Source: an uncultured virus (IMG/VR IMGVR_UViG_3300034375_009390) | Lineage: Duplodnaviria; Heunggongvirae; Uroviricota; Caudoviricetes | Virus record (IMG/VR): IMGVR_UViG_3300034375_009390 | DNA: 64,000 nt | Direction: 5' to 3' (one strand) | In this document: positions 3,968-51,579 of the stretch, in pieces | Layout of the letters: each line of letters starts with the position of its first letter | How positions within the stretch are numbered: position 1 is the stretch's first letter | Notes under the pieces: generated by a model | What the model was told of the DNA's origin: nothing | What the model saw: the letters and a program-made list of their open reading frames with translations, nothing else | The model's database searches: none | Program-made: the position numbers and the translations under genes

Positions 3968-4507
3968 GTGTCTATGAACAAATATTCGTTACAGCTAGAA
4001 AGAGAGTCTAAAAAAATAATTCTTTCACTGCAGTCAAATGATACAGCTCACGTACAAGCACAAGCTGTGGACATTTGTAGAGCAGTTGATGCGAATAATT
4101 ATAGTATAAACTATGGGGAAGTAAATGAATCGTTACTTGCAAAGCTGTTTAAAGACCTAGCATTTAATAATTTCAACTACACACAATGCAGAGAATGGAT
4201 AGGCCCCATAACAAATAATCAACCGTGCACATATGTGCTTGGAAAACGAGTGTATATTCGAAACGCAATCCTAAAATACCTAGATATCCCAAAAGACAAC
4301 TATTATCCTAAGCCACGCTGCGGAAACGCGAAGTGTGTAAACCCACTACACTTCGAGTACAAAACAGCAAAAAGTAGTAAACTATCCCCCGGAGATATTG
4401 AAATTTTAAAAGTTCAGAAACGCGAAGGAGCAAGTGTCGAGCAAATCGCCCAAATTTTAAAAGTACACAGAGCGACAATATACAGGCACTTACAACAAGT
4501 GGCTTAA
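3968..4507 (+). CDS. Degenerate HNH/His-Cys Zn-loop protein with C-terminal HTH
   Basis: CREWIG, CGNAKCVNPLH; C-terminal SVEQIAQILKVHRATIYRHL. Confidence 0.65.
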   Translation: MSMNKYSLQLERESKKIILSLQSNDTAHVQAQAVDICRAVDANNYSINYGEVNESLLAKLFKDLAFNNFNYTQCREWIGPITNNQPCTYVLGKRVYIRNAILKYLDIPKDNYYPKPRCGNAKCVNPLHFEYKTAKSSKLSPGDIEILKVQKREGASVEQIAQILKVHRATIYRHLQQVA

Positions 4508-7293: not shown

Positions 7294-7630
7294 ACTTGAG
7301 AAGTTCCAACGCGCTGTGTGCGATAGGTTAGACAAGACCAATGCAAAACTCGATCAAGTTATTGCCTTACTGGTATCAGCACAGCTCTTGGAAGAGTGCA
7401 TCTCCCCCGAAGGAGAAATCCGTGATGCCCAGCAGTGCGCGGAGATTGTTGTCGAGAGTTATTCTGCAGGTCTTTGCCTCTCCGACGAACTGACAAGCCG
7501 CACTCAAGACATTGAGTACCAAAAGTCAGAGTTTTTCGTAGACGAAGATGAGGATGAGAAAGATGAAGATGATGATAGTGATGACGATGACGGCCCCGAA
7601 GAACCTCGACTCTTTTCGATGGCGTTTTAA
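7274..7630 (+). CDS. Hypothetical protein with acidic tail
   Basis: C-terminal D/E run. Confidence 0.65.
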   Translation: MTSQSSKLEKFQRAVCDRLDKTNAKLDQVIALLVSAQLLEECISPEGEIRDAQQCAEIVVESYSAGLCLSDELTSRTQDIEYQKSEFFVDEDEDEKDEDDDSDDDDGPEEPRLFSMAF

Positions 7631-7634
7631 TAAG

Positions 7635-8228
7635 ATGAAAACACAAAATATTTTAGTAGACCAAGAAATCCTCAACTGCTTAGAAGTAGACGAGAATTTC
7701 CCAAGTGGATTAAAATGGAGTAAAAACTACAAACGGCATAAAAAAGATAGTATGTGTGGATATAAAACTAGCGACAAAAGATACTGGAGACAGAAGATAA
7801 ATGGAGTACAGTACGCTGTACATACTTTAATATGGTTGAAATTAAATAAAGAGCTAGAACCAGGTAAAACCGTAGATCACAAAGACAACAACGGGTTAAA
7901 CAATAGAATAGATAATTTAAGGTTAGCTTCAAGACTGAACCAACTACACAATAGAAAGTCTTGGAGCAGATCTAAATACAAAGGAGTAAATAAAGTAAAT
8001 AACTCTTACAGTGCTTACATTATGTATCCTGGTAAAGGTCGTATTCACTTAGGTTATTTTAATACAGCTGAACATGCGGCAATCGCACATGACATAGCTG
8101 CAAAACATATATTTCCAGAAAACCCTTTCTATAAATTAAACTTTAACCGTGGTTTTTGGTTACACGAGAGCACTATTATAAGTGAAAAAGTAATAGGTAA
8201 ACTAGAAGGTTTTTTCTCGATCCAGTAA
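7635..8228 (+). CDS. HNH-AP2 homing endonuclease
   Basis: VDHKDNNGLNNRIDNLR; SKYKGV..HLGYF.TAEHAAIAHD; AT-rich. Confidence 0.88.
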   Translation: MKTQNILVDQEILNCLEVDENFPSGLKWSKNYKRHKKDSMCGYKTSDKRYWRQKINGVQYAVHTLIWLKLNKELEPGKTVDHKDNNGLNNRIDNLRLASRLNQLHNRKSWSRSKYKGVNKVNNSYSAYIMYPGKGRIHLGYFNTAEHAAIAHDIAAKHIFPENPFYKLNFNRGFWLHESTIISEKVIGKLEGFFSIQ

Positions 8229-13837: not shown

Positions 13838-14334
13838 TTCTGCTTACCCTGCAGTTTCTGCTTAGATAAAGCTAACAGATTGTTCATCATATTGTGCGTG
13901 AGCACAGGGTAATCCTGTTGTAAAAGCTTGGTGTTAAGGAAGTTCTGGCTAGGATTCTGGACCACTTTCTGCATCATCATGCGACTCTGTGGGGTCGCCT
14001 GTTGAAGACTCATCATGTACTCCGCCTGACTCATGTCATCAGCACTGTCAGGAAGCGGAATATTACGCTGGTTATATCCTGCGGGACCCGTTAGTGCCGT
14101 AGATTTTTTAATGTTACCTTCTGAGTACTCAACAGGACCGACAGCAGGACGCGCATACAGTCCCCGATCTCGGGCGAATTGCGTGGCGATACGAGAACCG
14201 TTGTCGAGCTGCATTACTCGACGAACACCCAGTCCGGGTTCCTGGTTAAGACCCACGCCTCCCGGCGGCATGGCGAGTCCACCCATCGCTTCAGGCTCTT
14301 TGCCTGTTTGACTGGAGCCGGGGAGGATAGCCAT
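13834..14334 (-). CDS. Hypothetical protein
   Basis: 166-aa ORF, translationally coupled. Confidence 0.7.
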   Translation of the reverse strand: MAILPGSSQTGKEPEAMGGLAMPPGGVGLNQEPGLGVRRVMQLDNGSRIATQFARDRGLYARPAVGPVEYSEGNIKKSTALTGPAGYNQRNIPLPDSADDMSQAEYMMSLQQATPQSRMMMQKVVQNPSQNFLNTKLLQQDYPVLTHNMMNNLLALSKQKLQGKQK

Positions 14335-14555
14335 TACTTGTCGCCTCGATTAGCGCTTCGGTCTCGTACTCTTATGTTACTCGAAGAATTATTTAGAGGG
14401 TTCTTATCCTTGTGGTCGACGTCCTTCCCGTCACCTTTCTGAACCCTACCATTACGTTCCATATACCTTCTTGCTTTATTTCTAGCGGCCCTCCGTTTTT
14501 TTTGTTTTTCAGTTCCCTGATATTCGCGATACTCTTTCTTGTAATCCCTAGTCAT
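14334..14555 (-). CDS. Small HNH endonuclease
   Basis: RDYKKEY...GDGKDVDHKDKNPLNN..SNIRV...NR. Confidence 0.8.
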   Translation of the reverse strand: MTRDYKKEYREYQGTEKQKKRRAARNKARRYMERNGRVQKGDGKDVDHKDKNPLNNSSSNIRVRDRSANRGDK

Positions 14556-14811
14556 CTTGGATGACAGCTTTAGACTCCAGTTTACCGCAGTTGATCTTAT
14601 GAACGATGGCCTCGACAAACGATTGATCTTCGTTCAAATTGTCGCGGACAATCTCCGCTAGATCTTGTTGAAACTGCTGCCAGAGACCGGTGTACAAACC
14701 GTTGTTACGCTCATACAACCAGTAAAGCCAATCGATAAAATCGGCACGGCGTTGCTCATCAATTACGCTCCAGTTATCCAGAAGCGTTTTGTAATCGACC
14801 GCCGACGGCAT
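14548..14811 (-). CDS. Hypothetical protein
   Basis: 87-aa ORF. Confidence 0.6.
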   Translation of the reverse strand: MPSAVDYKTLLDNWSVIDEQRRADFIDWLYWLYERNNGLYTGLWQQFQQDLAEIVRDNLNEDQSFVEAIVHKINCGKLESKAVIQDD

Positions 14812-19936: not shown

Positions 19937-20125
19937 ATGACTGCCGCTATCGCTTTTATTCTCGCTCACTGGGTGGACATCATCGCTATTGGTGCTGCAG
20001 CGCACGCTTTAGCTCTGGTTATCGTAAATACTACTCCGTCAAAACGGGACGATATTATCTACGACCGCCTATATAAAGTAATTGAAGTTATTGCAGGGAT
20101 TATCACGAAGACTGCGAAGAAATAA
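19937..20125 (+). CDS. Holin-like small membrane protein
   Basis: Hydrophobic helices, TPSKRDD loop, basic C-terminus. Confidence 0.65.
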   Translation: MTAAIAFILAHWVDIIAIGAAAHALALVIVNTTPSKRDDIIYDRLYKVIEVIAGIITKTAKK

Positions 20126-20767
20126 CTCCGATAATTTTTACACCTGTAACGCCGAAAAAGGGGTCTTCATGGCCCCTTCTTATTCTCATGTATACAGAAT
20201 GATACTTACGATCTATAAGGGTACATAGTGTTCTCAAAGGATACTTAATTCCTTCGTACTCACACCATAGAGTGTTAGTTTTGTTTCGAGCTTGTTCATC
20301 TTTTGATGCCCATCGGCAGTTATCTGGCCAGTAACCCTTATAAGTATCAATACGTTCGAGTGTAAACTTGGGATCCGGCTTATCCCCCATATCATCATAA
20401 AAAGCTTCAAAACTATTAAGCCAACGTGGATCAGCATCGAGCTTTAAGACATTTACATAATGGTTGTATGACTTATGATTTTTATCTAAAAGTCTTCTTT
20501 TCATTTCGTACCAAGAATTCCATTCACTTGATCTAACTTTACCGTGCTTATAAGAGTGACTATTCGTACCTAAACGATAAGAATTCCCGAGGCACCCACA
20601 ATGGTCTTTGCTTCTTTTTTTAGGTTAGCGTACTCGCCTCGGGTTACAGAACCACATATACAACATTCCCAAACGTATTTATTCCTTCCATTTACGACAA
20701 CGATGTCAATAATTTTTCTGTTGTTTAAAATGTCACCTACGCGATCTGAGGGACGGAGCCTGGCCAT
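20103..20767 (-). pseudogene. HNH-type endonuclease split by a -1 frameshift
   Basis: ORFs 20570..20767 and 20103..20504 join in the -1 frame at the A7 run, giving LKKRSKDHCGC...WYEMKRR...TLERID...NCRWA. Confidence 0.75.
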
Positions 20768-21343: not shown

Positions 21344-22099
21344 GTGGCTGAAGTCAATTTTCTGGTTAAAAAAGGGCTGACTGTGCCCAAAGGCAGCGCA
21401 TCCACGCCTGCGATTATTTTCGACGCGTCCGACCCAAATACTGGTATTTATTCCCCTGCCGCAGACCAGTTAGCCATCTCGACTAATGGCACTGGGCGGT
21501 TGTTTGTTGCAAGTGATGGTAAGGTCGGTGTAGGAGGTGCTCCCAGTAACACTCTTCACGTTCAAGGTGATGTATCTGGGGGAGACTTAGTTTATTTAAA
21601 CAATACAAGCGCTGTCACTTCGGACGTACTGAGGTTAAATACTGCAGGTGCGGGAACAGGTACTTATATTATTGACGCACAATCTACAGGAACATCAAGA
21701 TTTGTTGTCAATGGCGCTGGACGGGTTGGCATAGGCACGGCAACACCGAACGCGCCTTTGTCAGTGTCTGATGGAACAACTGAAGTAATTACAAGTCCAT
21801 TCAGTAGTGTTGGTAGCTTTGGTACTAGGACCAATCATCCGTTGGCCTTAATCTCAAGCAATGTCGAACGCCTCCGCATCACATCGGACGGTAAACTAGG
21901 TCTGGGGACTAGTAGCCCTAACGCGAGTGCACTTTTAGACGTAACTAGTACCACGCTTGGATTCCTTCCTCCTCGGATGACGGAAGTACAACGAGACGCT
22001 ATTAGCTCTCCGGCTGCTGGTCTTATGATCTACAACACGACAACGAACAAACTTAACTTCTACAACGGCACTGCTTGGGAGGCAGTAACTTCTGCGTAA
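21344..22099 (+). CDS. Tail fibre protein (modular)
   Basis: VGIGT/LGLGT repeats, ERLRITSDG, GFLPPRMT..RDAI..PAAGLMIYNTT. Confidence 0.8.
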   Translation: MAEVNFLVKKGLTVPKGSASTPAIIFDASDPNTGIYSPAADQLAISTNGTGRLFVASDGKVGVGGAPSNTLHVQGDVSGGDLVYLNNTSAVTSDVLRLNTAGAGTGTYIIDAQSTGTSRFVVNGAGRVGIGTATPNAPLSVSDGTTEVITSPFSSVGSFGTRTNHPLALISSNVERLRITSDGKLGLGTSSPNASALLDVTSTTLGFLPPRMTEVQRDAISSPAAGLMIYNTTTNKLNFYNGTAWEAVTSA

Positions 22100-22138: not shown

Positions 22139-22468
22139 ATGGCTGATACGTTTACTTGGGGCATCGCCAACTTAGAGCGTCACGTAGCTGACGGTGTGGT
22201 TTACACTTCGCACTGGACTGTAAACGCTGAGCGTACCACGGCGGGTGGTGACGTCTTCACTGCAGGCGCTTACGGTTCCGTGGGTTTTGGTGCTCCTGAG
22301 CCCGAAAAGTTCATCCCTTACGATGAACTGACTCCCGAAATTGTGATCGGTTGGACCAAGAATGCTCTGGGTGGCGACGAAAAAGTGGCAGAGATCGAAG
22401 CCGCTTTAACCGCACAACTCGATGAGCAAGAGACCCCGACCAACGAGTCAGGTCTGCCCTGGTCTTGA
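22139..22468 (+). CDS. Tail-fibre-associated chaperone-like protein
   Basis: FTWGIANLER..DGVVYT.HW, FIPYDELT, GLPW. Confidence 0.7.
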   Translation: MADTFTWGIANLERHVADGVVYTSHWTVNAERTTAGGDVFTAGAYGSVGFGAPEPEKFIPYDELTPEIVIGWTKNALGGDEKVAEIEAALTAQLDEQETPTNESGLPWS

Positions 22469-23872: not shown

Positions 23873-24481
23873 ATGGCTTCTTACCGTCCGCTAGTTTTAG
23901 TCAGTGGTGTCATCAACCAACTGCCGCCCGGTGATGGGGTTATCGGTGGTGAACTGACTGCAGGCAGCGGTTTGTCTGGCGGCGGTGTTGTCGAAGCTGG
24001 CTCTCGAATTGACATCAATCTCGCCGCGAGTCCCAGCGGTCTTATTTTTGTAAACGGGGCGCTTGGTATTGATGGCCACGCTCAGGCTTCGGGTAACGCA
24101 GCGCTGAGTCTCGCGAATCTTGCTTATCAATACGCAGTTAACTCCCCGTTTCCCTCAACTGAGGGTTCGGTTGGTTTCCTGGATGTCAAAACGAGCCTGT
24201 CGACTGCTGGGCTTCAGTTAGATACATTCCCCAGCGGCGATTACAGCACTGTGGTTTATTCGGTGCAAGCCAAACGCGGCAACGAAGTGCATTCCAGTGA
24301 AGTCAAGCTGGTGCAAAACGGAGCCACTGTCTATACGTCTGAGTACGGTACGGTGTACAGCAGCGGTTTACTTGCGACTTACAGCGGCGCGATCACTGGT
24401 GGGCAGATCGAGTTCAACGCATTCGCGAACACAGGCACAAACACGTCATTCCGTGTAATTCGGTACGCTCAAGCTTTCTAA
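23873..24481 (+). CDS. Virion structural protein
   Basis: C-terminal LDTF..Y....YSVQ...VHSSE...YTSEYG domain. Confidence 0.65.
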   Translation: MASYRPLVLVSGVINQLPPGDGVIGGELTAGSGLSGGGVVEAGSRIDINLAASPSGLIFVNGALGIDGHAQASGNAALSLANLAYQYAVNSPFPSTEGSVGFLDVKTSLSTAGLQLDTFPSGDYSTVVYSVQAKRGNEVHSSEVKLVQNGATVYTSEYGTVYSSGLLATYSGAITGGQIEFNAFANTGTNTSFRVIRYAQAF

Positions 24482-24494
24482 ACTGGGTGCGTGC

Positions 24495-24581
24495 TCAGTC
24501 ATCAGTGCGAGGATTAATCGCAACGAGACAGTAGGCTAAGAAGAAGCCTGCTAACCAGGAACCGACGATCAGAGCTGCCAC
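24495..24581 (-). CDS. 28-aa transmembrane peptide (not in track)
   Basis: MAALIVGSWLAGFFLAYCLVAINPRTDD. Confidence 0.4.
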   Translation of the reverse strand: MAALIVGSWLAGFFLAYCLVAINPRTDD

Positions 24582-24665
24582 GCGTGCAAAAGGGTCTTAC
24601 TAAGTGCGGCCCAACTCTAGCAACTTCAAACTTGAATCAAATTAGAAGTTGGTTAGTTGATCTCA

Positions 24666-24875
24666 CTACTGGGCTTCGCCGGAGAGGTCAGAGGATTCAA
24701 GCGGGAAGTTAAACAACTTTTCAATACGTTTGATTTCCAGTTCAAACTGGCTGACCATCTCGAACGTAAAGCAGTCGTCGTAATCTGCTGCTAGATAGCC
24801 AAGTTCAACGCGGCTGATTTCCTTAAGCTTTTCAAGGATGAAGCGACGCAAGGCTTGTTTAGTTTTGTATTTCAT
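24666..24875 (-). CDS. Cassette ORF, hypothetical
   Basis: Starts at CTA-ATG of one site, stops at TAG of the next. Confidence 0.7.
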   Translation of the reverse strand: MKYKTKQALRRFILEKLKEISRVELGYLAADYDDCFTFEMVSQFELEIKRIEKLFNFPLESSDLSGEAQ

Positions 24876-24887
24876 TAGTGATGATGA

Positions 24888-25103
24888 CTACTGGGCTTCA
24901 AGCTCGTCGGCGAGGGTGAGGAGTTCACCCATTGCGGCTTCCCACCCATCGCCGAATAGTTCGGGCACAAACGGACCAGGGTTTAATTGAGCAGCAGCTC
25001 TCAGAGCGGCGGCAAGCTTCTCGCCGTAGTCAACAAAGACACCGGCTTCATCCTCGTTGAAGGCTTCCCAGATGGTTTGCGCTTGTGGTGAAAGTTCAGG
25101 CAT
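24888..25103 (-). CDS. Cassette ORF (LSPxAQ family)
   Basis: MPELSPQAQTIW..LAAALRAAA..LADELE; paralogue of 26203..26451. Confidence 0.7.
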   Translation of the reverse strand: MPELSPQAQTIWEAFNEDEAGVFVDYGEKLAAALRAAAQLNPGPFVPELFGDGWEAAMGELLTLADELEAQ

Positions 25104-25150
25104 TGAAGTCAGATTCACTAAGAGAGGCGGAGAATGTTTTGCGGCTTTGG

Positions 25151-25315
25151 TTATTTGATCATTTTCTTTTTGATCCTGCCGCATACGGTGCAACGAAGAG
25201 TATACCGAGTGTAGGGGCCACCCCAGAAATCACCTTGATAGTGGCCTTCAATTTCGTCGATAATCTCCCAGTTATGGACATGACCTACAAGTAGACGCTG
25301 AAGAAAATCAAGCAT
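25151..25315 (-). CDS. Cassette ORF, 54-aa putative Zn-binding protein (not in track)
   Basis: MLDFLQRLLVGHVHNW...RCTVCGRIKK. Confidence 0.6.
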   Translation of the reverse strand: MLDFLQRLLVGHVHNWEIIDEIEGHYQGDFWGGPYTRYTLRCTVCGRIKKKMIK

Positions 25316-25357
25316 GATGAGGGTGATCAGTGAAGGTAACTACGAGGTCTAGCTGGA

Positions 25358-25627
25358 TTAACTGAGCCGTCCATACGGTTTGTCATCGCTGAGTTCATCA
25401 GCGTCAACAGTCTCGATGTCTCGCCATTCGCCTCCGCGCTGGGACCAGCCTTGTGTCCAGGTGAAGTATCCCTGTAGCTTTAGATGAGTCTGTCCGTCTT
25501 CGGTATGAAATCGGACTAAGCGATAGGCGTCAGGAATCCCTTTGGCGATCTTGGCGGCGGCAATAGTGAGGGCGGGAAGATCAGTTGGAACCACGAGGAT
25601 CGGCTGATTGCTTGTGTTTTCGGTCAT
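25358..25627 (-). CDS. Cassette ORF, hypothetical
   Basis: 89 aa between sites. Confidence 0.7.
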   Translation of the reverse strand: MTENTSNQPILVVPTDLPALTIAAAKIAKGIPDAYRLVRFHTEDGQTHLKLQGYFTWTQGWSQRGGEWRDIETVDADELSDDKPYGRLS

Positions 25628-25647
25628 GGCTTGATTAGAGGAAGCGA

Positions 25648-25920
25648 CTACTTGTCCTCTGTTAGTGGCGCTGTGTTTGCAATTTCGATGAGATCTTCGC
25701 GGGTGAAGTGTCCATCGAGTGTGATCTCTCCGAAGTCTTCCACTATGTAGTTTCCCGCATGTTTGGGCATGTTGTTACAGTCCTGAACGGTGAGACTCGG
25801 CTCGGGCTGAGCGAGGAGAGCCTCAGCCCTGTCAATCAGCAGACCTCCGCCGTTAGGCGCCAAGCTCTTTATGGTCGCCAGCAGATCGGCGATCAGCTCT
25901 CGGGTGGTTGGATCAGTCAT
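25648..25920 (-). CDS. Cassette ORF, hypothetical
   Basis: 90 aa; ALLAQPEP shared with its neighbour. Confidence 0.7.
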   Translation of the reverse strand: MTDPTTRELIADLLATIKSLAPNGGGLLIDRAEALLAQPEPSLTVQDCNNMPKHAGNYIVEDFGEITLDGHFTREDLIEIANTAPLTEDK

Positions 25921-25940
25921 GAGGTGATTAGAGGTAATGA

Positions 25941-26195
25941 CTACTTGCCCCAGCGGGCGAGGACGGCGCGAAGACCCCTGAGCGTTACCTCGTCGGTATC
26001 GCCTCCTTCAGCCAGTGATGCTTCGTAGAACGCAAACAGCAGCTCCTCATCCGTCGGCACCTCCGGCTCGGGCTGGGCCAGGGCGGCATCTGCCTTCATG
26101 TAGGCGCAGATCAGATGGCGGTTGATGATGTGCTCCTTGCAGTTTGATTCGATAGCAGTGACTAATTGACGGCAGAGTGTTTTCCAGCCAGTCAT
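25941..26195 (-). CDS. Cassette ORF, hypothetical
   Basis: MTGWKTLC..ALAQPEPEVPTDEEL..RAVLARWG. Confidence 0.7.
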   Translation of the reverse strand: MTGWKTLCRQLVTAIESNCKEHIINRHLICAYMKADAALAQPEPEVPTDEELLFAFYEASLAEGGDTDEVTLRGLRAVLARWGK

Positions 26196-26202
26196 GGTGT
26201 GA

Positions 26203-26451
26203 TTAGTGGGTTCCACTACTGGGCTGGTCTTCACCACGCAGCTCGGCGGCAATGGCGAGTATTTCAGAGCGGATCTGTTCGCATTGGGTGATGCAGCAAT
26301 CGTTTCCACACGGATCAGCCGGCACTACCTGATCTGCCAGCGCCTCAATGGAGGCGGCAAGGGCTGGGAGATCCGCAGGGGTTTCGTTTATCTTTGAGTG
26401 GTCAAGATATGCAACCCAAATAGCTTGAGCAGCGGGCGATAGATCAGTCAT
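26203..26451 (-). CDS. Cassette ORF (LSPxAQ family)
   Basis: MTDLSPAAQAIW..ALADQVVP..ILAIAAEL. Confidence 0.7.
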   Translation of the reverse strand: MTDLSPAAQAIWVAYLDHSKINETPADLPALAASIEALADQVVPADPCGNDCCITQCEQIRSEILAIAAELRGEDQPSSGTH

Positions 26452-26705
26452 TAGGGTTCCTCACTACTGGGTGCTGAGTGCTTAGCCATTAAGGCCAGCA
26501 CTTGAGTCCGAAGATCAAGAAGCCTGCTTGAACATCGGTCAAAGTTCTCTGCTGCTCTTTCGGCAGCGTCAGCAATTTCTGCCTTAGTGGTGTAGCCGTC
26601 AGATAAAAGCTGGTCAAAATCATTTTGAACGTACCCCTTAAGACCATCAACATCAAGGGAAAGGCTTTTGATTGCGTCGAAGATTTCTTTTTGTTGGTCA
26701 GCCAT
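26451..26705 (-). CDS. Cassette ORF, coiled-coil
   Basis: 84 aa between sites. Confidence 0.7.
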   Translation of the reverse strand: MADQQKEIFDAIKSLSLDVDGLKGYVQNDFDQLLSDGYTTKAEIADAAERAAENFDRCSSRLLDLRTQVLALMAKHSAPSSEEP

Positions 26706-26719
26706 TGAAGTCGGAATCT

Positions 26720-27097
26720 CTACGAGGGGTCGGGAAGTTGTTCAAGGGCGCGGCGGATGGTGTCGTACTTGGCGCGAACAGCGGCATTCGTGTCCACGCC
26801 ATTGATGATGCAGGGTTCAATCTGGATCTCGCGCATCACTTCCAGCGCCTGCTCCTTCAAGCTCAGCGGCTTCGGGCGGCGGGCGGCGCGGAGCCTACCC
26901 GGCATAAGCCACCCATCTCCTCGATCTGAGCGGTTGTTGGGTACGTGCAGCCACTCACAGCACGCCTTCAGCTCAGTGTCTGCACCCCATTGAGCGGCGA
27001 GCGTAATGATTTGCTCGATACTCCAGCCAATCTTCTCTAACTGGAGCCAGTTGTGGATTTTGTCCGGCGGTGGGGCGATGGGATGTTGTTGTGTCAT
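26720..27097 (-). CDS. Cassette ORF, hypothetical
   Basis: MTQQHPIAPPP..AAQWGAD.EL.ACCEW..SLKEQAL. Confidence 0.7.
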   Translation of the reverse strand: MTQQHPIAPPPDKIHNWLQLEKIGWSIEQIITLAAQWGADTELKACCEWLHVPNNRSDRGDGWLMPGRLRAARRPKPLSLKEQALEVMREIQIEPCIINGVDTNAAVRAKYDTIRRALEQLPDPS

Positions 27098-27120
27098 TGG
27101 AAGGTGATTAGAGCAAGTCA

Positions 27121-27315
27121 CTAAGCGGTGTGCTGTTTTAGAAACTCAAGCATCAACCGATGCGCTTCGCCAGCATCAGCGATGAACTCGCCTTTGTAGT
27201 GAAAGCCTGCTTTGTCAATGCGTATGACTTCTTCCGTCTGTTCTCGCAGGACGATGCAGCTACCTGCGTTTGGATCCTCGACCCTAGTGATCTGGGGCGT
27301 GTAATCTTTTGTCAT
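27121..27315 (-). CDS. First cassette ORF, hypothetical
   Basis: 64 aa; GGAGG upstream. Confidence 0.7.
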   Translation of the reverse strand: MTKDYTPQITRVEDPNAGSCIVLREQTEEVIRIDKAGFHYKGEFIADAGEAHRLMLEFLKQHTA

Positions 27316-27380
27316 CGTCGATCCTCCAATCGGCGGTCATGGGGCAGGAGCCGGAAACTCGCTGCCCTCCAACACTACCA
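27316..27380 (-). promoter_or_regulatory. Putative promoter and two-hairpin leader of the cassette array
   Basis: Extended -10-like TGgTAGTGT (27372-27380), then GGGCAG-c-GAGT-loop-GCTC-CTGCCC and CGAT-tggagg-ATCG. Confidence 0.5.
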
Positions 27381-27410
27381 CGCGGGTCAAGGAATTCGCC
27401 TAAGCGCACC

Positions 27411-27433
27411 AAAGCCCCCGGTTTCCCAGGGGC
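27411..27433 (-). terminator. Terminator after the tail fibre gene
   Basis: GCCCCTGG-GAAA-CCGGGGGC-TTT. Confidence 0.6.
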
Positions 27434-27481
27434 GGTGACGCTGAGCTAGGCAGACCAGTGAGTAGGTCTTATCGCCTTGGC

Positions 27482-28681
27482 TTAGGTGTAAACGATCTTC
27501 AGGTCACCAGTGGAGGTGCGGTACACATCTCCATCAACAAGGCCGCCAGTTTTTGCGGCAGCGTTATCAGCATAGACGGGAGCGTTAGAGAAATTGATTA
27601 CCCGCGTATTCTTGATACGCATCGCTTCGGTTGGTGATGACGCCCCATCCGCAGTAACGGAGAACACTAGGCGTCCTGGGTAGTCACCGGATCCCGGCGT
27701 AGAATCAGCATAGGCTTCGATGCGTGCATAATCTCCACCGTCTTTATCTGTAAACAGAAAAGCTCCTATTTTGTCGGCATTTGACATAGAAGTGGATGAT
27801 TCACCTCTTTTAAGGGCAAATATTCCCTCGTTTGTGGGAACAGTAGCGTACCCTTGAACTTGCAAAAGCGCGTATTGCGCTGTGCTTGTGCTAGCGCTCG
27901 TAGACGTGCCAACTAAGAGCCTGCCGGAGCTGTCGATGCGGGCGCGTTCATTAGAAGCAGTGCTAAAAACGATCTTGCCTCCGCCTCTACTGGCATTAAT
28001 GGCTATTCCATTTGCTGTAGACGCCTCATTTGTTGTACCTATTGTTCCGGCACCGTTTCCATCCGATGAGAGTAGATCAACCGCAGTACCTGCACTAGCC
28101 TCTGCAATTGTTAAGCGCCCACCAGGACTCGTAGTGCCTATACCTACATTGCCTGAGGAGTCAATCCTCATTCTTTCACTGTTCGTAGTGGCATTATTTG
28201 TATAGAAACCTAAATAACCATCTACGCCAGCAACATCAGGTCGAGCACCAACAATTGACGCACTTGCAACAGAAGATCCATTTGGAATAAAATCAATAGC
28301 TGGTCCGTCGTCCGCAACCGTTCCCGCTGCCACAAGGGTGAGAACAGTTGTTTTACCGGAGACTGTACTTTCTGCAATATGGAGTTTTGAACCAGGATTA
28401 CTAGTCCCCAGACCTAGACGTCCGCTGGAATCAATACGCAGCCGCTCACTACCGCCGGTCGCAAACGCCAGAGTATTAGTTGTCGGTCTGAATAAACCAA
28501 CATCCGTATCATTCAGGAAGCGGACTGCGGGGGTTCCTGCCGATCCGTCCGGAATAAGAAACAGATTTTGCTGTTGAATCTTCTTATTCGGCGTTGTCGG
28601 GTCGCTTACATCGACCAGTACAAAAGTATCGTTCGAGGCCACGCCGGTCCCGATATCACTCAGAGCACTGATCTTTGTCAT
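27482..28681 (-). CDS. Tail fibre protein (modular)
   Basis: MTKISAL N-domain; three ER.RIDSSG repeats; YPGRLVFS..ADG..SPTEAMRI. Confidence 0.85.
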   Translation of the reverse strand: MTKISALSDIGTGVASNDTFVLVDVSDPTTPNKKIQQQNLFLIPDGSAGTPAVRFLNDTDVGLFRPTTNTLAFATGGSERLRIDSSGRLGLGTSNPGSKLHIAESTVSGKTTVLTLVAAGTVADDGPAIDFIPNGSSVASASIVGARPDVAGVDGYLGFYTNNATTNSERMRIDSSGNVGIGTTSPGGRLTIAEASAGTAVDLLSSDGNGAGTIGTTNEASTANGIAINASRGGGKIVFSTASNERARIDSSGRLLVGTSTSASTSTAQYALLQVQGYATVPTNEGIFALKRGESSTSMSNADKIGAFLFTDKDGGDYARIEAYADSTPGSGDYPGRLVFSVTADGASSPTEAMRIKNTRVINFSNAPVYADNAAAKTGGLVDGDVYRTSTGDLKIVYT

Positions 28682-32933: not shown

Positions 32934-33545
32934 CTAAAAACGATGCGGTGCACAGTGGAAGCAGTCACAGTCTAGTTTATCCAAATCTGGCAATTCTCGT
33001 CCTAATTTGTCCCAACCAAGTTCAATCCATTTACCTCGAACAGTGCGGGCGGCTTCGATTTTGCAGACATAACAACCTAAATATTCCAGTCTGCCTTTAT
33101 GCCCAACCCCCGCCTGCCATTTTTCTACTTTTTTGTTCCAAATAACACCCGTTACGCCGCTAACGCTAGATCGAAACACTGATCTGTTTACACTTTGAAT
33201 ACTGCCATCTATGTCTAATCTTAAGTTGGACGCGTTGTTATCCAACCAATTTCTATTTATATGATCGATCTGACCATCGGAGGGATCTACACCAAAAGTC
33301 ATATAATAAATTAATCGAGATGCGGCGTACTTAACGCCATCAACTTTAACCATCCAGTCGCCCCTATCAGGTGTGCGATGAGAGAAAAGCTTATATCCCG
33401 CCACGCTGGCGGCTTTGGCTCCTCCTTTACGATCTACTTTCCAAACTAAACCCGACCACTGTCCGTACTTATCTGGTGGAATTTCAACGACTTCCAGCAG
33501 CTCATTCAACCGCTCAAGCGGCGGCAGGGGCTTATACTTAGGCAT
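32934..33545 (-). CDS. HNH-AP2-like homing endonuclease
   Basis: IDHINRNWLDNNASNLR; SGVTGVIW; YLGCY..KIEAA. Confidence 0.85.
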   Translation of the reverse strand: MPKYKPLPPLERLNELLEVVEIPPDKYGQWSGLVWKVDRKGGAKAASVAGYKLFSHRTPDRGDWMVKVDGVKYAASRLIYYMTFGVDPSDGQIDHINRNWLDNNASNLRLDIDGSIQSVNRSVFRSSVSGVTGVIWNKKVEKWQAGVGHKGRLEYLGCYVCKIEAARTVRGKWIELGWDKLGRELPDLDKLDCDCFHCAPHRF

Positions 33546-33612
33546 CGGCCTGGTTGTGCAGGTTGATCGCGCCTCGGGGTGTTGTCGCACCGCCGAGGCT
33601 TCAAACTATAGC

Positions 33613-37735: not shown

Positions 37736-37899
37736 CAGAAGTGAAACCCCGCCTCCTTACTTTCCACTCTAGCTGAAACACCCTATTTTACGTCCGGTAG
37801 CTTACAAAGCTAGAAAGATCCCGTGCTAAATTTCGACAATTAAAAGCCCCAGCGGTGCGGCAACACCCCAGGGCACGATCAACCTGTAGCACCAGGCCG

Positions 37900-38487
37900 A
37901 TGACTAAGCATAATCCTTTGCCGCCTCTTGAGCGGTTAAACGAACTGTTCGAAGTTGTATCAATCCATCCTTCTCAGTTTGGAATTCAATCCGGCTTGAT
38001 ACGAAAAATAAGTCGAGGTGGTCAGAAAGTAGGAAGTATAGGAGGGCACTTGGGTACACACTCTGTAGCAAAAAACAGGTTAGATTGGTCAATAAAAATA
38101 GACGGAAAACTCTACTACGTCTCGCGAATAATATATTACATGGTAAATAAAATAGATCCAGCAGAGATTGAGGTAGATCATCAGGATCAAAACTCTTTAA
38201 ACAATAATGCAGACAATCTTCAGCTGGGAACTAGACTAGCGCAGTGCACAAATAGAGGAATATTTTCAAGTAATAGTAGCGGACTTATTGGCGTTAGTTG
38301 GTATAAGAGAACTAAAAAATGGAGAGTTAATCTTATGCACAAAGGAGTTAACGTTTTAAATAGTTACTTTACTTGCAAACTTGAAGCAGCTAATACATAT
38401 AATAATAAAGTAATAGAATTAGGTCTAGATAAAATGGGTAAAACTTTAAACAACTTAAATGATATAAAATGCGATTGCTGTAAGTAA
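37900..38487 (+). CDS. HNH-AP2-like homing endonuclease
   Basis: VDHQDQNSLNNNADNL; SGLIGVSW; paralogue of 32934..33545. Confidence 0.85.
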   Translation: MTKHNPLPPLERLNELFEVVSIHPSQFGIQSGLIRKISRGGQKVGSIGGHLGTHSVAKNRLDWSIKIDGKLYYVSRIIYYMVNKIDPAEIEVDHQDQNSLNNNADNLQLGTRLAQCTNRGIFSSNSSGLIGVSWYKRTKKWRVNLMHKGVNVLNSYFTCKLEAANTYNNKVIELGLDKMGKTLNNLNDIKCDCCK

Positions 38488-38505: not shown

Positions 38506-38856
38506 TTAACTTTCCTTAACTTTTAAGCGTTTTGTTCTTTTGGCGCTTATTCTTTTTACAGAATCAATCGAGATATTTAAAAGCTTAGCGATCTGAGGAC
38601 AGGAGCTACCCTGATCTAAAAGGTTCTCGACCTCCTTCGTCCGCCACGAGTTGTCGCGACGCATATCGATCAATCGCTTGAGTTCCTTAAATTCCTCAGT
38701 CGTCGCTCCTTTGTGCAGTACTTGGCGGACGCGTTCCCGAGTAATGCCTTCTCGATCTGCAATCTGTTGGTAGGTCAGCCCGTCACAATAGAGTTCGTAA
38801 AAGCGCAAGAACCGTTCGCGGCGGGTCTCGGCGCCCTTCCGACGCATGTTGTACAT
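38506..38856 (-). CDS. Double-HTH protein (sigma region 4-like)
   Basis: TYQQIADREGITRERVRQ; SCPQIAKLLNISIDSVKR. Confidence 0.75.
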   Translation of the reverse strand: MYNMRRKGAETRRERFLRFYELYCDGLTYQQIADREGITRERVRQVLHKGATTEEFKELKRLIDMRRDNSWRTKEVENLLDQGSSCPQIAKLLNISIDSVKRISAKRTKRLKVKES

Positions 38857-45127: not shown

Positions 45128-45667
45128 ATGACATTCTCTGGTTCTTTTGAATCCACGCCGGCTTCTGAGCTTGTTCCCTCGGAAACAACCGTCGTTGTTC
45201 AAGAACTGGAGGAGCGGAGGGTCACGTTGGAGGATCTGTTGATTCAACTCGTGGCCCTTTCGTCACATTTACACCAGATCTACACCCAAGCACACTTAAT
45301 TCACTTAAATATCGAAGGTCCTCTCTTCCTTCCACTGCATAAATTCCTCAAAAAACAGTACTTCGCGCACATTGATCAGTTTGATCAGGTAACTGAGTTC
45401 GTCCGCACGATGGACACACTCATGCCGATGTGCGAAAAGGGTCTTCTAGGTGCTTATAAGGGCTTTAAACACGTAAAATCATATGAAGCTCGCGAAATGC
45501 TGATCACTTACCTGCAAAACCTGGAGAAAATTGGTATGCAGGCTAAGGAAATCGGTGAACTGGCCCGAGAAATCAAAGCTCCGGACGTAGAAAACTACAT
45601 GGCGGAGATTGTAGGTCAGATGTTTAAAGCCTCCTGGAAGATTAAAGCTTCCCTGAGGTCCTCTTAA
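45128..45667 (+). CDS. dps: Dps/ferritin-like protein
   Basis: HLIHLNIEGPLFLPLHKFL..QY...IDQFDQVTE. Confidence 0.8.
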   Translation: MTFSGSFESTPASELVPSETTVVVQELEERRVTLEDLLIQLVALSSHLHQIYTQAHLIHLNIEGPLFLPLHKFLKKQYFAHIDQFDQVTEFVRTMDTLMPMCEKGLLGAYKGFKHVKSYEAREMLITYLQNLEKIGMQAKEIGELAREIKAPDVENYMAEIVGQMFKASWKIKASLRSS

Positions 45668-46112
45668 ATTTTTGTCCGGGGATTACCTTTTGCATAACAG
45701 CGTCATAATGAGACCAACCCAGATTTAAACGTCGAGAAATAGTAGTGTGACTGATACCAATTTCTAAAGACCATTCTTTAATTGTTTGACACTTACCGTT
45801 AATAGTTAAATAAACACACATTGATCGATTTCTATTTTGCTCCGTACGCGTTGCCCATTTGCAATTCTCTGGACAATAATTTCCATTAATATCAATCCGC
45901 TCTATAGAGTACTCTTTACCAGGACGTTCTCCCATATCCATTAAAAAATTTTCAAACGTATTCCATCGATCACAAACCCGGATACCTCTTGCCCCGTAAT
46001 TAGAGTAACCGTTTGCTTTCGGGTTGTTACAACGAGATCTCATATTATGCCAACTAGAGTGAGTTAAAGAACGAACTCCATTGATCGAATGTCCGTGACG
46101 TTTTAAAACCAC
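45642..46112 (-). CDS. HNH-type homing endonuclease
   Basis: WHNMRSRC, YGARGI.VC.RW, SIERID.NGNYCPENCKWAT; GTG start inferred; TGcTATACT upstream. Confidence 0.85.
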   Translation of the reverse strand: MVLKRHGHSINGVRSLTHSSWHNMRSRCNNPKANGYSNYGARGIRVCDRWNTFENFLMDMGERPGKEYSIERIDINGNYCPENCKWATRTEQNRNRSMCVYLTINGKCQTIKEWSLEIGISHTTISRRLNLGWSHYDAVMQKVIPGQKFKRTSGKL

Positions 46113-46158
46113 TGTTAACGTTGTAGGAGTAACCAGTATAGCAGGCCACACTTCGCGG

Positions 46159-46743
46159 CTAAACCTGAGCCCATCCGGCAGCTGTGTAAATATAAAGTCC
46201 ACTAGGAGCTGCTGTTTGATAAAACAGTGTCCCCTGTTGAGCGGATCCCGGCAAGGCTGCGTCAATAGCCGCGACGGGGATACCCGTGGCGATTACCGTG
46301 CCACTCGAAAGCAAACTACCCGAGGACAGGATCGCGGTCGAAGAAGTCTGAGCGAAAGTACCGCTCGCGAAGATAGCGCCGGACGCGAGTAGAGCCGTAC
46401 TCGCTTGAGTCGCAAACGCGGCAGAATCAGCGTAACCGGCTCCGATTTTTACCCACGCTGAACCGGTCCAGACGTTTAAGTAAGAATTGGGGCTGCTGCT
46501 ATCCGTCCAAAGCTCGCCAACAGAGTTGCCGGGAATACCTGCAGGGGTCGAGTTTGGTGCAGTTGTGCCGTAATGCGCAGGTCCAATCTTTCGGATATTG
46601 CCTGCTGTGTCTTCAAAGTACAGACCCGGATCAACAGCACCCCGAGAGATTGCAAGTTCTCCGCCTTGTACAACAACACCGCTGGGTCGGTCAGACGACA
46701 GGCCGGAGCGCTTGAGAAGTAAAATAGAAGGAGTAGATGTCAT
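46159..46743 (-). CDS. Tail fibre-like protein
   Basis: ILLLKRSG..RP..GELAI N-domain; GELWTD. Confidence 0.65.
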   Translation of the reverse strand: MTSTPSILLLKRSGLSSDRPSGVVVQGGELAISRGAVDPGLYFEDTAGNIRKIGPAHYGTTAPNSTPAGIPGNSVGELWTDSSSPNSYLNVWTGSAWVKIGAGYADSAAFATQASTALLASGAIFASGTFAQTSSTAILSSGSLLSSGTVIATGIPVAAIDAALPGSAQQGTLFYQTAAPSGLYIYTAAGWAQV

Positions 46744-49265: not shown

Positions 49266-50933
49266 TCAGCGGTACATGTTGACAGGAGGCTGCCCGATGT
49301 AAGCAGCAGATCGAGGAGCCATAAACTGACGAAGATCAGCGCTGCCTTGGAAGTTACCCATGGGATCTTCCACCCCCATCTTCATCGAACCTTCTACAAG
49401 TTTATTAACGTTCGAACCGGCCTCGGATGTAATTTCGGTCTGCTTCATAACCGGCATTTGTTGGCTAGGCATTGTCCGCCTCTGCTCCATCAGGCGGTAG
49501 GCCAGCACGGGATTAGCCTTAGCCCAGCGCTCAAAAGCGACATCGCTTTCGATGCCTACGGAGCCGGGTGCCCCAGTACCACGTAGACCGGCTAAGGTCT
49601 GCTCGATCTGACCAGGCGATGTAGCAGCGGCGCGTTCCACTGCGTACATGCCACGGGCTCCGGAACCTAATCGACCGGCACCTTGTGCTTGAGCGTTAGC
49701 GGCAGCCTGACGGTAGTTCGACTCCCCGTCATTAGTCCGGATGACTACTTGACCGCCGCCGACCATGCCGGGTTGAGGCATAGAACGCATAGCGGGCTCC
49801 AGAGCTTCAGGAGCCGGAGGATTGGCGGTATTCGGGAGATCGGGAGTAGCGAGAGGAGTGGGGAGCTGAGCAGCGGGGTCGCCACCAGTAACAGCGGGAA
49901 TCTTCGCGCCGGCTTCAGGACTAGCCGTGGTCGGACCTAGGGGAGATTCAGCCGTAAGCTGAGATTCCTCCTGTCCAAGCATATTAAGGGCTGCTCCAAG
50001 ACCACCAATACCGGCTAAACCGGCAGCAGCTTTATAGAGATTGGAGAGATCCGCTTGACGGGTGCCTCCCACGGCGTTCCGAGAACCCATCGCTGTAACC
50101 GCGTCACTACCCATAAGAGGACGACTTGCGAGAGAGGATAAAGCGGACTCCTGAGTTGGAGTCATCGCACCGCCCCGGGTGATATCTTCGATTCGGACCC
50201 GTTCGATGATCGGGTCGGTCACCTCACCGCCAGGGGAACGAGTCATTGAACCGGGGACTTCTCCGCCCATACGAGCAAGAGCACCGGGGCGACCGCTAGA
50301 CCCACCCTTAGTCATTGCGGAAGAACCCTGACGGACCAGTGCACCCGGTTCGCCGTATTCCAAAGCCCGTAAGTAATCGATGCCCCGAGGGCCGACAAGA
50401 TTGTCAAAAATCTCAGATGTAGGAATTCCGTAAGCGTCGCTAGCTTTATTGGAGATGTCCAGAATCGAACGGTAGGTCCCTGGGTCTGTCTCCAAAAGGC
50501 GTTGAGCTGCTTCTGACTGAGGTACCCACGCAGGAACAGGAGCCTCAGGAGAACTGGTAGCTAAAGCACCTGAACGACCGGTAATGGTGGTGCCGGGAGT
50601 GGAAAGAGCTTCCCGGATGGGAAGAGGCATCTGACCGGGAGCCTGGGGAACACCCGGCCCACGGCGAGGGCCAACCGGAGTTACTTCCGGAGCCTGAGGG
50701 TATTGCGAACGACGAGGAACAGAGCCTGCAGGAACTTCGCGGGGGCCGGGAAGCTGCCGTTGAAAACGCCCGGTGACAGGATTCGGGGGAACATTAATGC
50801 GGGGTTGGACGGGAGTCGGACCACCTTTTTTCACAAAAGATTCAAAAAAGGCGCGGACCACGGGTTCAAGCGTTTGCAACTCGCGCACGCCTTGACGCCC
50901 GGCCCCTACTAGTTCTCCTAAAAGCCCAGCCAT
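49266..50933 (-). CDS. P/G/A-rich low-complexity protein (internal virion?)
   Basis: 555 aa, largely disorder-like. Confidence 0.7.
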   Translation of the reverse strand: MAGLLGELVGAGRQGVRELQTLEPVVRAFFESFVKKGGPTPVQPRINVPPNPVTGRFQRQLPGPREVPAGSVPRRSQYPQAPEVTPVGPRRGPGVPQAPGQMPLPIREALSTPGTTITGRSGALATSSPEAPVPAWVPQSEAAQRLLETDPGTYRSILDISNKASDAYGIPTSEIFDNLVGPRGIDYLRALEYGEPGALVRQGSSAMTKGGSSGRPGALARMGGEVPGSMTRSPGGEVTDPIIERVRIEDITRGGAMTPTQESALSSLASRPLMGSDAVTAMGSRNAVGGTRQADLSNLYKAAAGLAGIGGLGAALNMLGQEESQLTAESPLGPTTASPEAGAKIPAVTGGDPAAQLPTPLATPDLPNTANPPAPEALEPAMRSMPQPGMVGGGQVVIRTNDGESNYRQAAANAQAQGAGRLGSGARGMYAVERAAATSPGQIEQTLAGLRGTGAPGSVGIESDVAFERWAKANPVLAYRLMEQRRTMPSQQMPVMKQTEITSEAGSNVNKLVEGSMKMGVEDPMGNFQGSADLRQFMAPRSAAYIGQPPVNMYR

Positions 50934-50958
50934 TAGAGTGCTCTACTTTATGTGTATG

Positions 50959-51579
50959 TTAGCGCCAATTTGCGTAGAAAAACAGGCGATCAGCTCGTGA
51001 CACATCAGGAGGACCAGGAATAGCTTGGATGAATTCCCCTCCACTACGTTCAAATCTGTACCGAGCGGCTACGGGGTCTCGATAGTTAGGCACATAAAGC
51101 ATCTGTGCTAACCTTTCAGTTTCGTAGAGATAATTTTCTTTCCAAATACGTGCAGTTTCTCGTTTGTCTTGGATGTTAATAGAACGACTAACGTCGCCTA
51201 AAATTGTTTCCTGACGACTTGTAGCACGCCCAGTAGCTAACTCAGTTAGACGCTCAGCTTCCTCACAACGTTCGACAGCTTGAATAATTTTATCGTAATA
51301 GTATTCACTAGGAATACTGTTACAAGCTTCCATAAGACGAGCATAGTCACCCGCAGGAACTGTAGCAATATTGTACCCCAAGTGATACGCTACACGACTA
51401 AAATTAAAATCATCAAGTCTGTAACCGAAGACCTGCGGGGGATTACGTGTTAGCTGATTAACAGCAGCGTAAATTACTTGACGCTTAGTAGCGTCAGTAG
51501 TGTCAGGTTGAAATACTACACCCTGCTGAGCTAAATAACTTTGTAACTGCTCAAGCTCTTGCTGAGTAAATTGAGCCAT
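50959..51579 (-). CDS. Putative head-tail connector
   Basis: Helical 206 aa downstream of the capsid genes; call is by position only. Confidence 0.45.
   Translation of the reverse strand: MAQFTQQELEQLQSYLAQQGVVFQPDTTDATKRQVIYAAVNQLTRNPPQVFGYRLDDFNFSRVAYHLGYNIATVPAGDYARLMEACNSIPSEYYYDKIIQAVERCEEAERLTELATGRATSRQETILGDVSRSINIQDKRETARIWKENYLYETERLAQMLYVPNYRDPVAARYRFERSGGEFIQAIPGPPDVSRADRLFFYANWR

Follow-up and report, generated by a model that had tools for sequence, protein, structure and literature searches.

How small accessory genes can enter and leave phage genomes without damage to the neighbouring ones is an old question, to which the linker idea of the modular theory belongs, and good examples are few. 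Boundary or linker sequences were reportedly proposed by Susskind and Botstein in 1978 and by Clark et al. in 2001 to direct homologous recombination to module junctions. Here we describe a short junction element in an array of ten small genes (P1 to P10; 24654..27315, minus strand) of an uncultured virus (IMG/VR IMGVR_UViG_3300034375_009390), of which a stretch of 64,000 nt, called the window in the following, was analyzed. The window derives from freshwater metagenomes and represents a siphovirus-like cyanophage, and the array belongs to a freshwater picocyanobacterial siphophage. Like the linkers of the modular theory, the element is a short conserved sequence at gene boundaries, but whereas lambdoid boundaries are heterogeneous, a single defined element is present here at more than 90 distinct junctions. 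The new aspect is this one element of ~20 nt in uncultured freshwater cyanophages, which on comparative evidence appears to be a regulatory junction element mediating modular shuffling.

Among the described systems, the PeSL (promoter-early stem-loop) elements of T4-type phages carry a sigma-70 promoter together with a stem-loop terminator and a Shine-Dalgarno (SD) sequence, and mini-circles have been demonstrated for them, according to excerpts of the published accounts (PMC2839356, PMC4122927). As far as these excerpts go, both elements are short and conserved, reach from the stop codon of one small non-essential open reading frame (ORF) to the start of the next in a hyperplastic region, bound insertions, deletions and replacements, and form the exchange point between otherwise unrelated sequences (PMC2839356, PMC4122927). 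In contrast to PeSL as described there, the cyanophage element is ~20 nt long and has no promoter, stem-loop or SD sequence; host group and phage morphotype differ as well. The start-associated sequences of Cluster K mycobacteriophages (SAS/ESAS) are, in the excerpted account, likewise asymmetric motifs located a few nucleotides before the starts of different gene families in one orientation, sometimes holding the upstream stop codon and being absent from host genomes; a role in translation initiation was proposed and is unproven (PMC3203893). According to the same excerpt, SAS contain an AGGAG SD core and are distributed across the non-structural half of the genome, whereas the cyanophage element is depleted in G (2.6%) and its sites lie in one array; a link to gene shuffling is not part of that excerpt (PMC3203893). 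Stoperators of Cluster A mycobacteriophages are similar in that they are short and asymmetric, lie in short intergenic gaps and follow the direction of transcription, but, as the excerpted source describes them, they are numerous, genome-wide and bound by the immunity repressor of a temperate phage, unlike the sites of the single cyanophage array (PMC9283540). No integrase was found in the window, and no ORF scan of the window named a repressor.

Anatomy of the junction element

In the first-pass annotation of the window, ten copies of a palindromic 15-nt site, TAG-N9-CTA, had been described on the minus strand, each behind a small gene. All ten 15-mers were recovered on this strand with the coordinates (given below gene by gene) and letters it had quoted, each where a small co-oriented ORF ends, and the bias of their flanks (CCCAG, CAAG or CTCG before, ATCA or ATG after) is real. 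TAG-N9-CTA in its exact form is found 21 times in the 64-kb window compared to 11.4 ± 3.0 times in shuffled sequences, one of 100 shuffles getting to 21. Seven of the 21 fall inside the 2,662-bp array, where 0.48 would be expected (Poisson P = 7e-7), so that the reported clustering of seven perfect copies was reproduced; the other 14 correspond to the background rate. As had also been noted, the TAG serves as stop codon for six of the upstream ORFs (P1, P2, P5, P6, P9 and P10) and not for the other four: P3 and P4 read past the site TAG in another frame and end with the TAA of CTAA, and P7 and P8 stop 16 to 31 nt ahead of their sites. TAG stops close 6 of 10 array genes versus 8 of 62 other window genes. 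Readthrough of the TAG was dropped by inspection, the next ATG being out of frame and no suppressor tRNA being present.

A weight matrix built from the ten sites gave one other strong match in the window (49728-49753, minus); otherwise the sites are confined to the array. This match, TAGTCATCCGGACTAATGA, lies in frame within a 555-aa ORF, where it encodes ..QVVIRTND.., and was taken as coincidence. A further stretch resembling the junction motif, TAGCCATCTCGACTAATGG (21465-21490, plus), is located in a tail-fibre-like gene and is kept in at least eight relatives; in one frame it would give ..VAISTNG... Both motif-like coding stretches are probably coincidental, yet the likeness of the two peptides is odd.

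To follow the element into relatives, viral contigs were searched with P2 (26720-27097), giving 29 loci. At these, the same kind of site is found at gene junctions, oriented as the genes. A scan for one motif 15-mer returned at least 120 loci; among the 120 listed, 53 show the junction context. In order to avoid a choice by the left half of the site, the right half together with the first bases of the gene family F0 (P2 and P5) was additionally used as anchor, which yielded 119 loci with 96 distinct upstream contexts. The consensus in relatives is sharper than in the window and consists of (A)GTAGTC, one of the hexamers ATTACC, GCTTCC or ACCTTC, ACT, and then AATCACCC-ATG or TCT-ATG. The anatomy is accordingly a stop codon, mostly TAG, sometimes TAA and in no case TGA, followed by YC, a C/T-rich hexamer, ACT, a leader that is either AATCACCC or TCT, and the ATG. 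This start codon lies 17 or 22 nt past the T of the stop, and the element is always found in gene orientation and is unstructured; none of the ten window junctions folds better than its shuffles (z -1.29 to +1.68).

At 65 of the 83 non-redundant sites among the matches listed, an upstream ORF of at least 35 codons uses the TAG as its in-frame stop, and a downstream start follows within 60 nt at 81 of the 83 (at +17 in 23, at +22 in 35). One and the same leader, the right half plus the F0 start, stands after the 96 different upstream contexts. The 12 nt before CTAAT are TAGTCATTACCA in 52 of these contexts, TAACCATTACCA in 12 and TAGCCATTACCA in 8, and the triplet at -12 is TAG in 76, TAA in 13 and TGA in none, being in frame with a long upstream ORF in 63. 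Between stop and start the G content amounts to 2.6% (1,621 nt from 94 junctions), compared to 24% in the flanking coding sequence.

The variability ascribed earlier to the 9-nt spacer is not a free one: in relatives the hexamers are mostly ATTACC, GCTTCC and ACCTTC, and three window sites carry these conserved alleles. The palindrome did not survive the comparison either. TAACC and TAGCC variants are common and break the TAGT/ACTA symmetry without compensation in ACTA, so that the palindrome is not a conserved feature and the TAG/CTA symmetry looks coincidental. Five near-complete relatives contain 1-3 strict copies of the element each. In the literature searched, motif strings were found only in unrelated primer matches, and nothing relevant on cyanophage intergenic motifs appeared.

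A candidate promoter that had been proposed upstream of the array could not be reproduced. The consensus scan of 24000-28000 revealed no sigma-70-like promoter on the coding strand and one on the other strand versus 2.5 expected; terminator-like sites in the same interval number 4 compared to 4.0 expected, none at a junction. An SD-like motif precedes two of the ten array genes, one of them P1, which has no junction motif. Each site might in principle be a promoter at which the host RNA polymerase, with a phage factor, makes leaderless or very short-leader transcripts; we judge this very improbable. In the AATCACCC class, ACTAAT does lie 5 nt before the ATG, a hexamer-ATG spacing known at leaderless genes, and the window encodes a 116-aa protein with sigma-70 region-4-like helix-turn-helix (HTH) motifs. 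However, no -10-like hexamer fits the second class (ACTTCTATG), the conserved left part is found at two different distances from the ATG, and the scan did not detect a coding-strand promoter.

More distant relatives carry similar arrays with another type of junction. Homologues of P6 and P7 occur there in small-gene arrays with 4-nt ATGA overlaps from which the motif is absent, and the F0 homologues of the cultured phages S-CBS2 (gp064-069) and S-RIP1 likewise stand in motif-free arrays with ATGA overlaps. The 4-nt ATGA overlap is the classic arrangement for translational coupling. In the loci L150 (S-CBS2 49417-51460), L152 and L153 the same small-gene families are ATGA-joined, and most of the proteins start with MTD, MTE or MTQ. 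The occurrence of ATGA-joined arrays in cultured and uncultured relatives indicates that small-gene arrays are general in these cyanophages and that the junction type alone is lineage-specific.

Gene exchange at the junctions

Comparison of the relatives indicates that the cassettes are exchanged at the sites. Among the matches listed, 94 non-identical junctions bring together 59 upstream and 32 downstream flank clusters, with 79 different pairings. The F0 start is found after 24 upstream types and that of family F1 (P4 and P9) after 18, and of the eight largest upstream clusters, seven continue into two or three different downstream genes. The gene end upstream of site 5 is joined to five different downstream genes, namely in L048, L089, L100, L031 and the window. 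Left halves, hexamer alleles and right halves are freely mixed. For the 28 junctions that come from loci found by protein homology only, similarity is lost between -5 and +12 of the stop in all 32 informative pairs, that is, pairs with the same downstream and a different upstream gene.

Furthermore, there are 42 isolated blocks that are at least 90% identical but lie between dissimilar flanks, and 26 of their 84 ends lie at -12..+30 of a site, compared to ~5% expected from site density. The block ends are located at -3..0 or +13 of the site, with block identities of 93 to 98.8%. Upstream genes that are 93.7-98.7% identical are followed by different downstream genes exactly past ACT in L036/L083 (98.7%), L034/L141, L072/L141 and L048/L100. 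Conversely, a leader and F0 gene that are 95-98.8% identical start at -3..0 behind different upstream genes in L011/L012, L012/L021 (98.8%) and L006/L009. Within the window, the P5 cassette matches the viral contig L061 over 269 nt with 95.5% identity, from CTAATCACACC-ATG (CTAAT, site 4) to ...GGCAAG-TAGTCA (site 5), and both flanks are unrelated. Contigs from four freshwater runs show a P2-like gene joined to a P9-like gene (26730 to 25109) by an 18-nt canonical junction, with P3-P8 absent; in the same contigs a P2-like end is joined to the P6/P7 junction, and tandem F0-F0 genes are joined by TGA-AGGAGC-CTAATCACCC.

The earlier description of the small genes as exchangeable cassettes is thus supported by the flank combinations, the block ends, the P5/L061 unit and the P2-P9 contig joins. 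The breakpoints seen in the comparison fall in the sites. Some boundaries are imprecise, as at P7 and P8 and in L061, which has no left arm and, ahead of CTAAT, unrelated filler of 50 nt.

The motif could also be a passive remnant, inherited without function when genes of the F0 or F1 type were duplicated in tandem together with their spacer. Both families are indeed paralogous and reach up to five copies per locus, and part of the flank bias (GAAGCCCAGTAG) is the conserved F1 C-terminus ...ELEAQ*. Nevertheless, the element flanks unrelated genes, as the 59 upstream and 32 downstream flank types reveal, it is near-invariant while the adjoining proteins go down to 28-62% identity, and its extreme G depletion does not agree with neutral spacers, which would have decayed. 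We therefore regard this origin as improbable.

Possible roles in coupling, binding and recombination

In our preferred reading, to which we assign about an even chance, the ten sites represent one intercistronic junction element, specific to the lineage, that is repeated along a hyperplastic array of small accessory genes and serves as coupling linker and as homology patch. We infer the coupling function from the anatomy alone: on a polycistronic mRNA the element would couple the translation of neighbouring cistrons. Ribosomes that end at the UAG would stay on the open, SD-less, pyrimidine-rich leader and restart at the AUG 17 or 22 nt away, and the ATGA overlaps in related arrays would do the same job. 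Pyrimidine-rich intercistronic leaders together with ribosomal protein S1 are said, after work of Mutsuda and Sugiura in 2006, to drive SD-independent initiation in cyanobacteria. An SD-like sequence is found before only 13 of the 62 non-array genes of the window, which suggests that initiation without SD pairing prevails in the phage, as in its presumed host group.

The 14-22-nt patch is the sole sequence common to otherwise unrelated cassettes, so recombination would resolve there without damage to the genes. As a micro-homology it may allow general homologous recombination, phage- or host-encoded, between co-infecting relatives to swap, insert or delete whole genes intact. The element would then work like the 'mobile regulatory cassettes' formed by PeSL in T4-type phages, except that the reused signal would be translational and no dedicated recombinase would be involved.

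Several observations weigh against this reading. TAGTC, ACT and the three hexamer alleles are more conserved than an unstructured leader requires, which hints at a specific binding partner. TAG or TAA is kept in ~26 of the 33 contexts where the ORF calls do not put the triplet in frame. The element also follows the last array genes, at site 10 and at ends like GCCCAGTAGTCACCTTCACTAAAAGG in relatives, where nothing is left to translate. Homologous recombination over 14-22 nt is inefficient without a phage single-strand annealing system, and none was identified in the ORF scans of the window. The comparison of breakpoints has its own bias: the loci L030-L149 were chosen by the motif 15-mer, which inflates the peaks at the motif edges. 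In the window-centred blastn search 40 and 41 of 191 high-scoring segment pair ends lie at sites versus 12% expected by length, which is modest, and most ends lie inside P2. Excess conservation, the out-of-frame stop triplet and the post-terminal copies keep two alternatives alive, a binding factor, which we consider rather unlikely, and dedicated cutting and joining, for which the chance appears slim.

In the first of these, the site is bound by a specific phage or host factor, either a protein or an RNA, that regulates the accessory genes jointly, and shuffling is a by-product. The factor would act on mRNA, as does the translational repressor RegA of phage T4, or on DNA, as at stoperators. 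Sequence composition does not account for the same 12-mer in 52 of 96 contexts or for TAG or TAA in 89 of 96, even out of frame; the asymmetric orientation and the copies after terminal genes also fit an operator. Candidates are at hand, as small HTH proteins of unknown role are encoded in the window at 38506-38856 and 3968-4507, and, in the excerpted account, the authors describing the start-associated sequences left the same question open (PMC3203893). On the other hand, the sites lie in one window array and the five near-complete relatives hold 1-3 strict copies, whereas stoperators occur genome-wide; co-occurrence with the motif was shown for no candidate binder, and the palindrome that a dimeric DNA binder requires is not conserved. 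Of the known sites considered, NtcA (GTA-N8-TAC), the cyanobacterial LexA box, the Fur box, boxA/nut and a Type I restriction-modification bipartite site were dropped by inspection alone.

For the second alternative, the first-pass annotation had proposed a minimal palindromic recombination site and an integron-like array. Similar to integrons, the cassettes are co-oriented, apparently promoterless and each followed by a site, and their content varies with boundaries in the sites. In contrast to integrons, the array is without an IntI-type recombinase, a folded hairpin and attI, and the element is tied to stop and start codons. An attC site is an imperfect inverted repeat of 57-141 bp that folds into a hairpin as single strand, and a Xer/dif site comprises two ~11-bp arms flanking a 6-8-bp central region. 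Around the cyanophage hexamer only TAGTC and ACT(A) are conserved, the arms being 3 to 5 bp, and no junction folds better than shuffles, unlike attC or dif. No tyrosine or serine recombinase, integrase or resolvase was found among the window ORFs scanned with PHROGs (57) and Pfam (56), so that, as the annotation had it, none is recognized in 113 ORF scans. A search for a recombinase co-occurring with the arrays gave PF00589 in one of the five near-complete relatives, not beside the array, and PF00239 in none. Together with the unkept palindrome and the partly imprecise boundaries (50 nt of filler in L061, P7 and P8 ending 16-31 nt early), this is evidence against a dedicated recombination system.

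A minimal site-specific recombination site, at which a recombinase or nuclease encoded elsewhere on the phage, by the host or by an HNH gene cuts the spacer and exchanges cassettes integron-like, accordingly has little probability in our estimate. It would agree with the P5/L061 unit, which runs from the right part of one site to the left part of the next, as the product of a spacer crossover does, and with the free combination of the two halves and the hexamer alleles. Each cassette including the last has a 3' site, as with attC, and six HNH endonuclease genes are present in the window; the scans, the short arms and the missing hairpin speak against it. It is improbable that the sites are crossover sites of an unrecognized cassette-exchange system in lytic cyanophages, in which an enzyme cuts the 6-9-nt spacer of a ~15-nt site. 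This enzyme might be an HNH endonuclease working with repair, or a host recombinase. If this were true, whole genes would move between co-infecting phages as leader-ORF-stop units, and the system would be a phage 'mini-integron' without attC hairpins or IntI.

Array genes and genome context

The array follows tail-fibre genes, one at 27482-28681 (minus) and further tail and tail-fibre genes upstream of it. For the part 27679-28400 of this gene, metagenome contigs show many alternative joints skipping 171-229 nt (e.g. 27679/27900 and 27949/28124) and a very high summed depth. Either the repeat number of this Gly-rich repetitive tail-fibre part varies, or the part is widely common to co-occurring phages. 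The intergenic region between the tail-fibre gene and P1 (27316..27481, minus) is without junction motif. It holds, at about 27400-27450 within the segment 27395-27485 (minus), a very stable hairpin that contains GCCCCUGGGAAACCGGGGGC within a longer stem and folds with -44.6 kcal/mol (z -4.3), a stability that none of 200 shuffles attained. This hairpin probably terminates the structural operon or else serves in processing or stability. A GGAGGA SD sequence is located at about 27322-27327 (minus), ~7 nt before the ATG of P1, and the leader upstream of P1 is conserved in L018.

All array genes and sites lie on the minus strand. P1 (27121..27315, 64 aa), the first gene, stops at the TAG of site 1, and P1-homologous DNA in L089, L036, L140 and others stops at the stop codon. 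Site 1 (P1/P2, 27109..27123) reads TAGTGACTTGCTCTA, then ATCACCTTCCA-ATG; from +12, at CTAATCAC, onwards the sequence is homologous to the F0 leaders found at 25 or more loci. P2 (26720..27097, 125 aa) belongs to F0 and phrog_32006 and has the sequence pattern MTQQHPI...AQWGAD.EL.ACCEW...RRPKP.SLKEQAL. Site 2 (P2/P3, 26708..26722) is TAGAGATTCCGACTT-CA-ATG, and its right half GACTTCAATG is common to site 8. P3 (26451..26705, 84 aa) runs out of frame through the TAG and ends with the TAA of CTAATG; at site 3 (P3/P4, 26452..26466), TAGTGAGGAACCCTA-ATG, stop and start overlap as TAATG. P4 (26203..26451, 82 aa) is an F1 protein, M.(D/E)LSPAAQA...LAIA.ELE, with the TAA of site 4 as stop codon. Site 4 (P4/P5, 26204..26218) reads TAGTGGAACCCACTA-ATCACACC-ATG, and the block shared with L061 begins at its +12, includes the F0 gene P5 (25941..26195, 84 aa) as the common cassette, and ends at +5 of site 5 (P5/P6, 25929..25943), TAGTCATTACCTCTA-ATCACCTC-ATG, which carries the allele ATTACC.

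P6 (25648..25920, 90 aa) has relatives with 57-61% aa identity in other phage arrays with ATGA overlaps. It is followed by site 6 (P6/P7, 25636..25650), TAGTCGCTTCCTCTA-ATCAAGCC-ATG, with the allele GCTTCC. The relatives of P7 (25358..25627, 89 aa) show 66-68% aa identity and occur in motif-free contexts; its stop TAA is 16 nt ahead of site 7 (P7/P8, 25328..25342), TAGTTACCTTCACTG-ATCACCCTCATC-ATG, with an ACCTTC-like allele. The sequence GACCTCGTAG ahead of this site resembles the final 10 nt of an F0 gene and may be a remnant of one. P8 (25151..25315, 54 aa; phrog_8294), which is basic with a pI of 8.7, stops 31 nt ahead of site 8 (P8/P9, 25106..25120), TAGTGAATCTGACTT-CA-ATG. P9 (24888..25103, 71 aa), an F1 protein with MPELSPQAQ...LADELEAQ, stops at the TAG of site 9 (P9/P10, 24876..24890), TAGTCATCATCACTA-ATG, where homology to the F1 3' ends of relatives extends to +13..+16. 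The last gene, P10 (24666..24875, 69 aa), stops at the TAG of site 10 (24654..24668), TAGTGAGATCAACTA-ACC, which marks the array end and is followed by a weak hairpin and no gene. The array-terminal segment is conserved in L060, L138 and L141.

F0 and F1 are multi-copy in the arrays of relatives and constitute an expanding multigene family in which a Cys pair (ACCEW) is conserved. In the IMG/VR loci L024, L019, L006 and L025 they occur in four or five copies per locus, some fused to longer N-terminal parts (up to 258 aa). The PHROGs to which F0 and P8 were assigned are both of unknown function, and F0 is found in virus-only hypothetical clusters of the protein atlas. For the ten cassette proteins no Pfam family reaches the cut-off, P5 giving just a weak PaaA2 match (E 0.094), and PADLOC assigned no family to any of them. 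Nine of the ten products are small and acidic or near-neutral (pI 4.05-6.8). AlphaFold2 (AF2) models of F0 (P2, pLDDT 81) and F1 (P9, pLDDT 80) are all-alpha, without a PDB match at E <= 0.001. P3 has no relative in the viral contigs. Across 185,579 prokaryote species, each represented by a single genome, the 25-nt F0-type junction pattern had 0 matches, and no relative of P2 was found among 148 candidate stretches.

The PHROG scan of 57 and the Pfam scan of 56 larger ORFs identify the window as a tailed-phage genome. DNA polymerase, primase/helicase, thymidylate synthase, portal, endolysins and tail proteins are encoded, together with the terminase large subunit (62169-63689, minus) and the major head protein (53511-54626). 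DNA matches to cultured phages are limited to pieces of 41-50 nt in the Synechococcus phages S-CBS2 and S-RIP1. The locus was found in 23 rows of public runs from 15 studies, every one labelled freshwater metagenome and 0 of them RNA. No tRNA genes and no Rfam families at gathering score were found in the window.

The six HNH endonuclease genes are scattered over the window (7548-8228, plus; 14334-14618, 20103-20504 and 32934-33590, minus; 37855-38487, plus; 45642-46265, minus), three being assigned to phrog_99, two to phrog_3377 and one to Pfam HNH_3. This load of homing-type nucleases is unusually heavy and fits a lineage with intense recombination. Both HTH proteins are candidate regulators: the one at 38506-38856 (minus, 116 aa) has two HTH units (Sigma70_r4, HTH_23, HTH_7) and that at 3968-4507 (plus, 179 aa) a C-terminal HTH_38. 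Auxiliary-looking genes encode a ferritin-like protein (45128-45667, plus; PF00210, 1.8e-10), a family-17 glycosyltransferase (58750-59592, minus; 6.7e-15) and a DUF7936 protein (22139-22468, plus; 3.6e-32).

Hypervariable accessory-gene arrays are a natural place to seek host-takeover or anti-defence genes, and the motif marks such arrays in cyanophage metagenomes. With clean recent breakpoints at its edges, and without promoter, terminator or SD sequence, the element would be a compact case of an expression signal doubling as a recombination hotspot. It may also reveal how the SD-poor ribosomes of cyanobacteria are handed over between cistrons.

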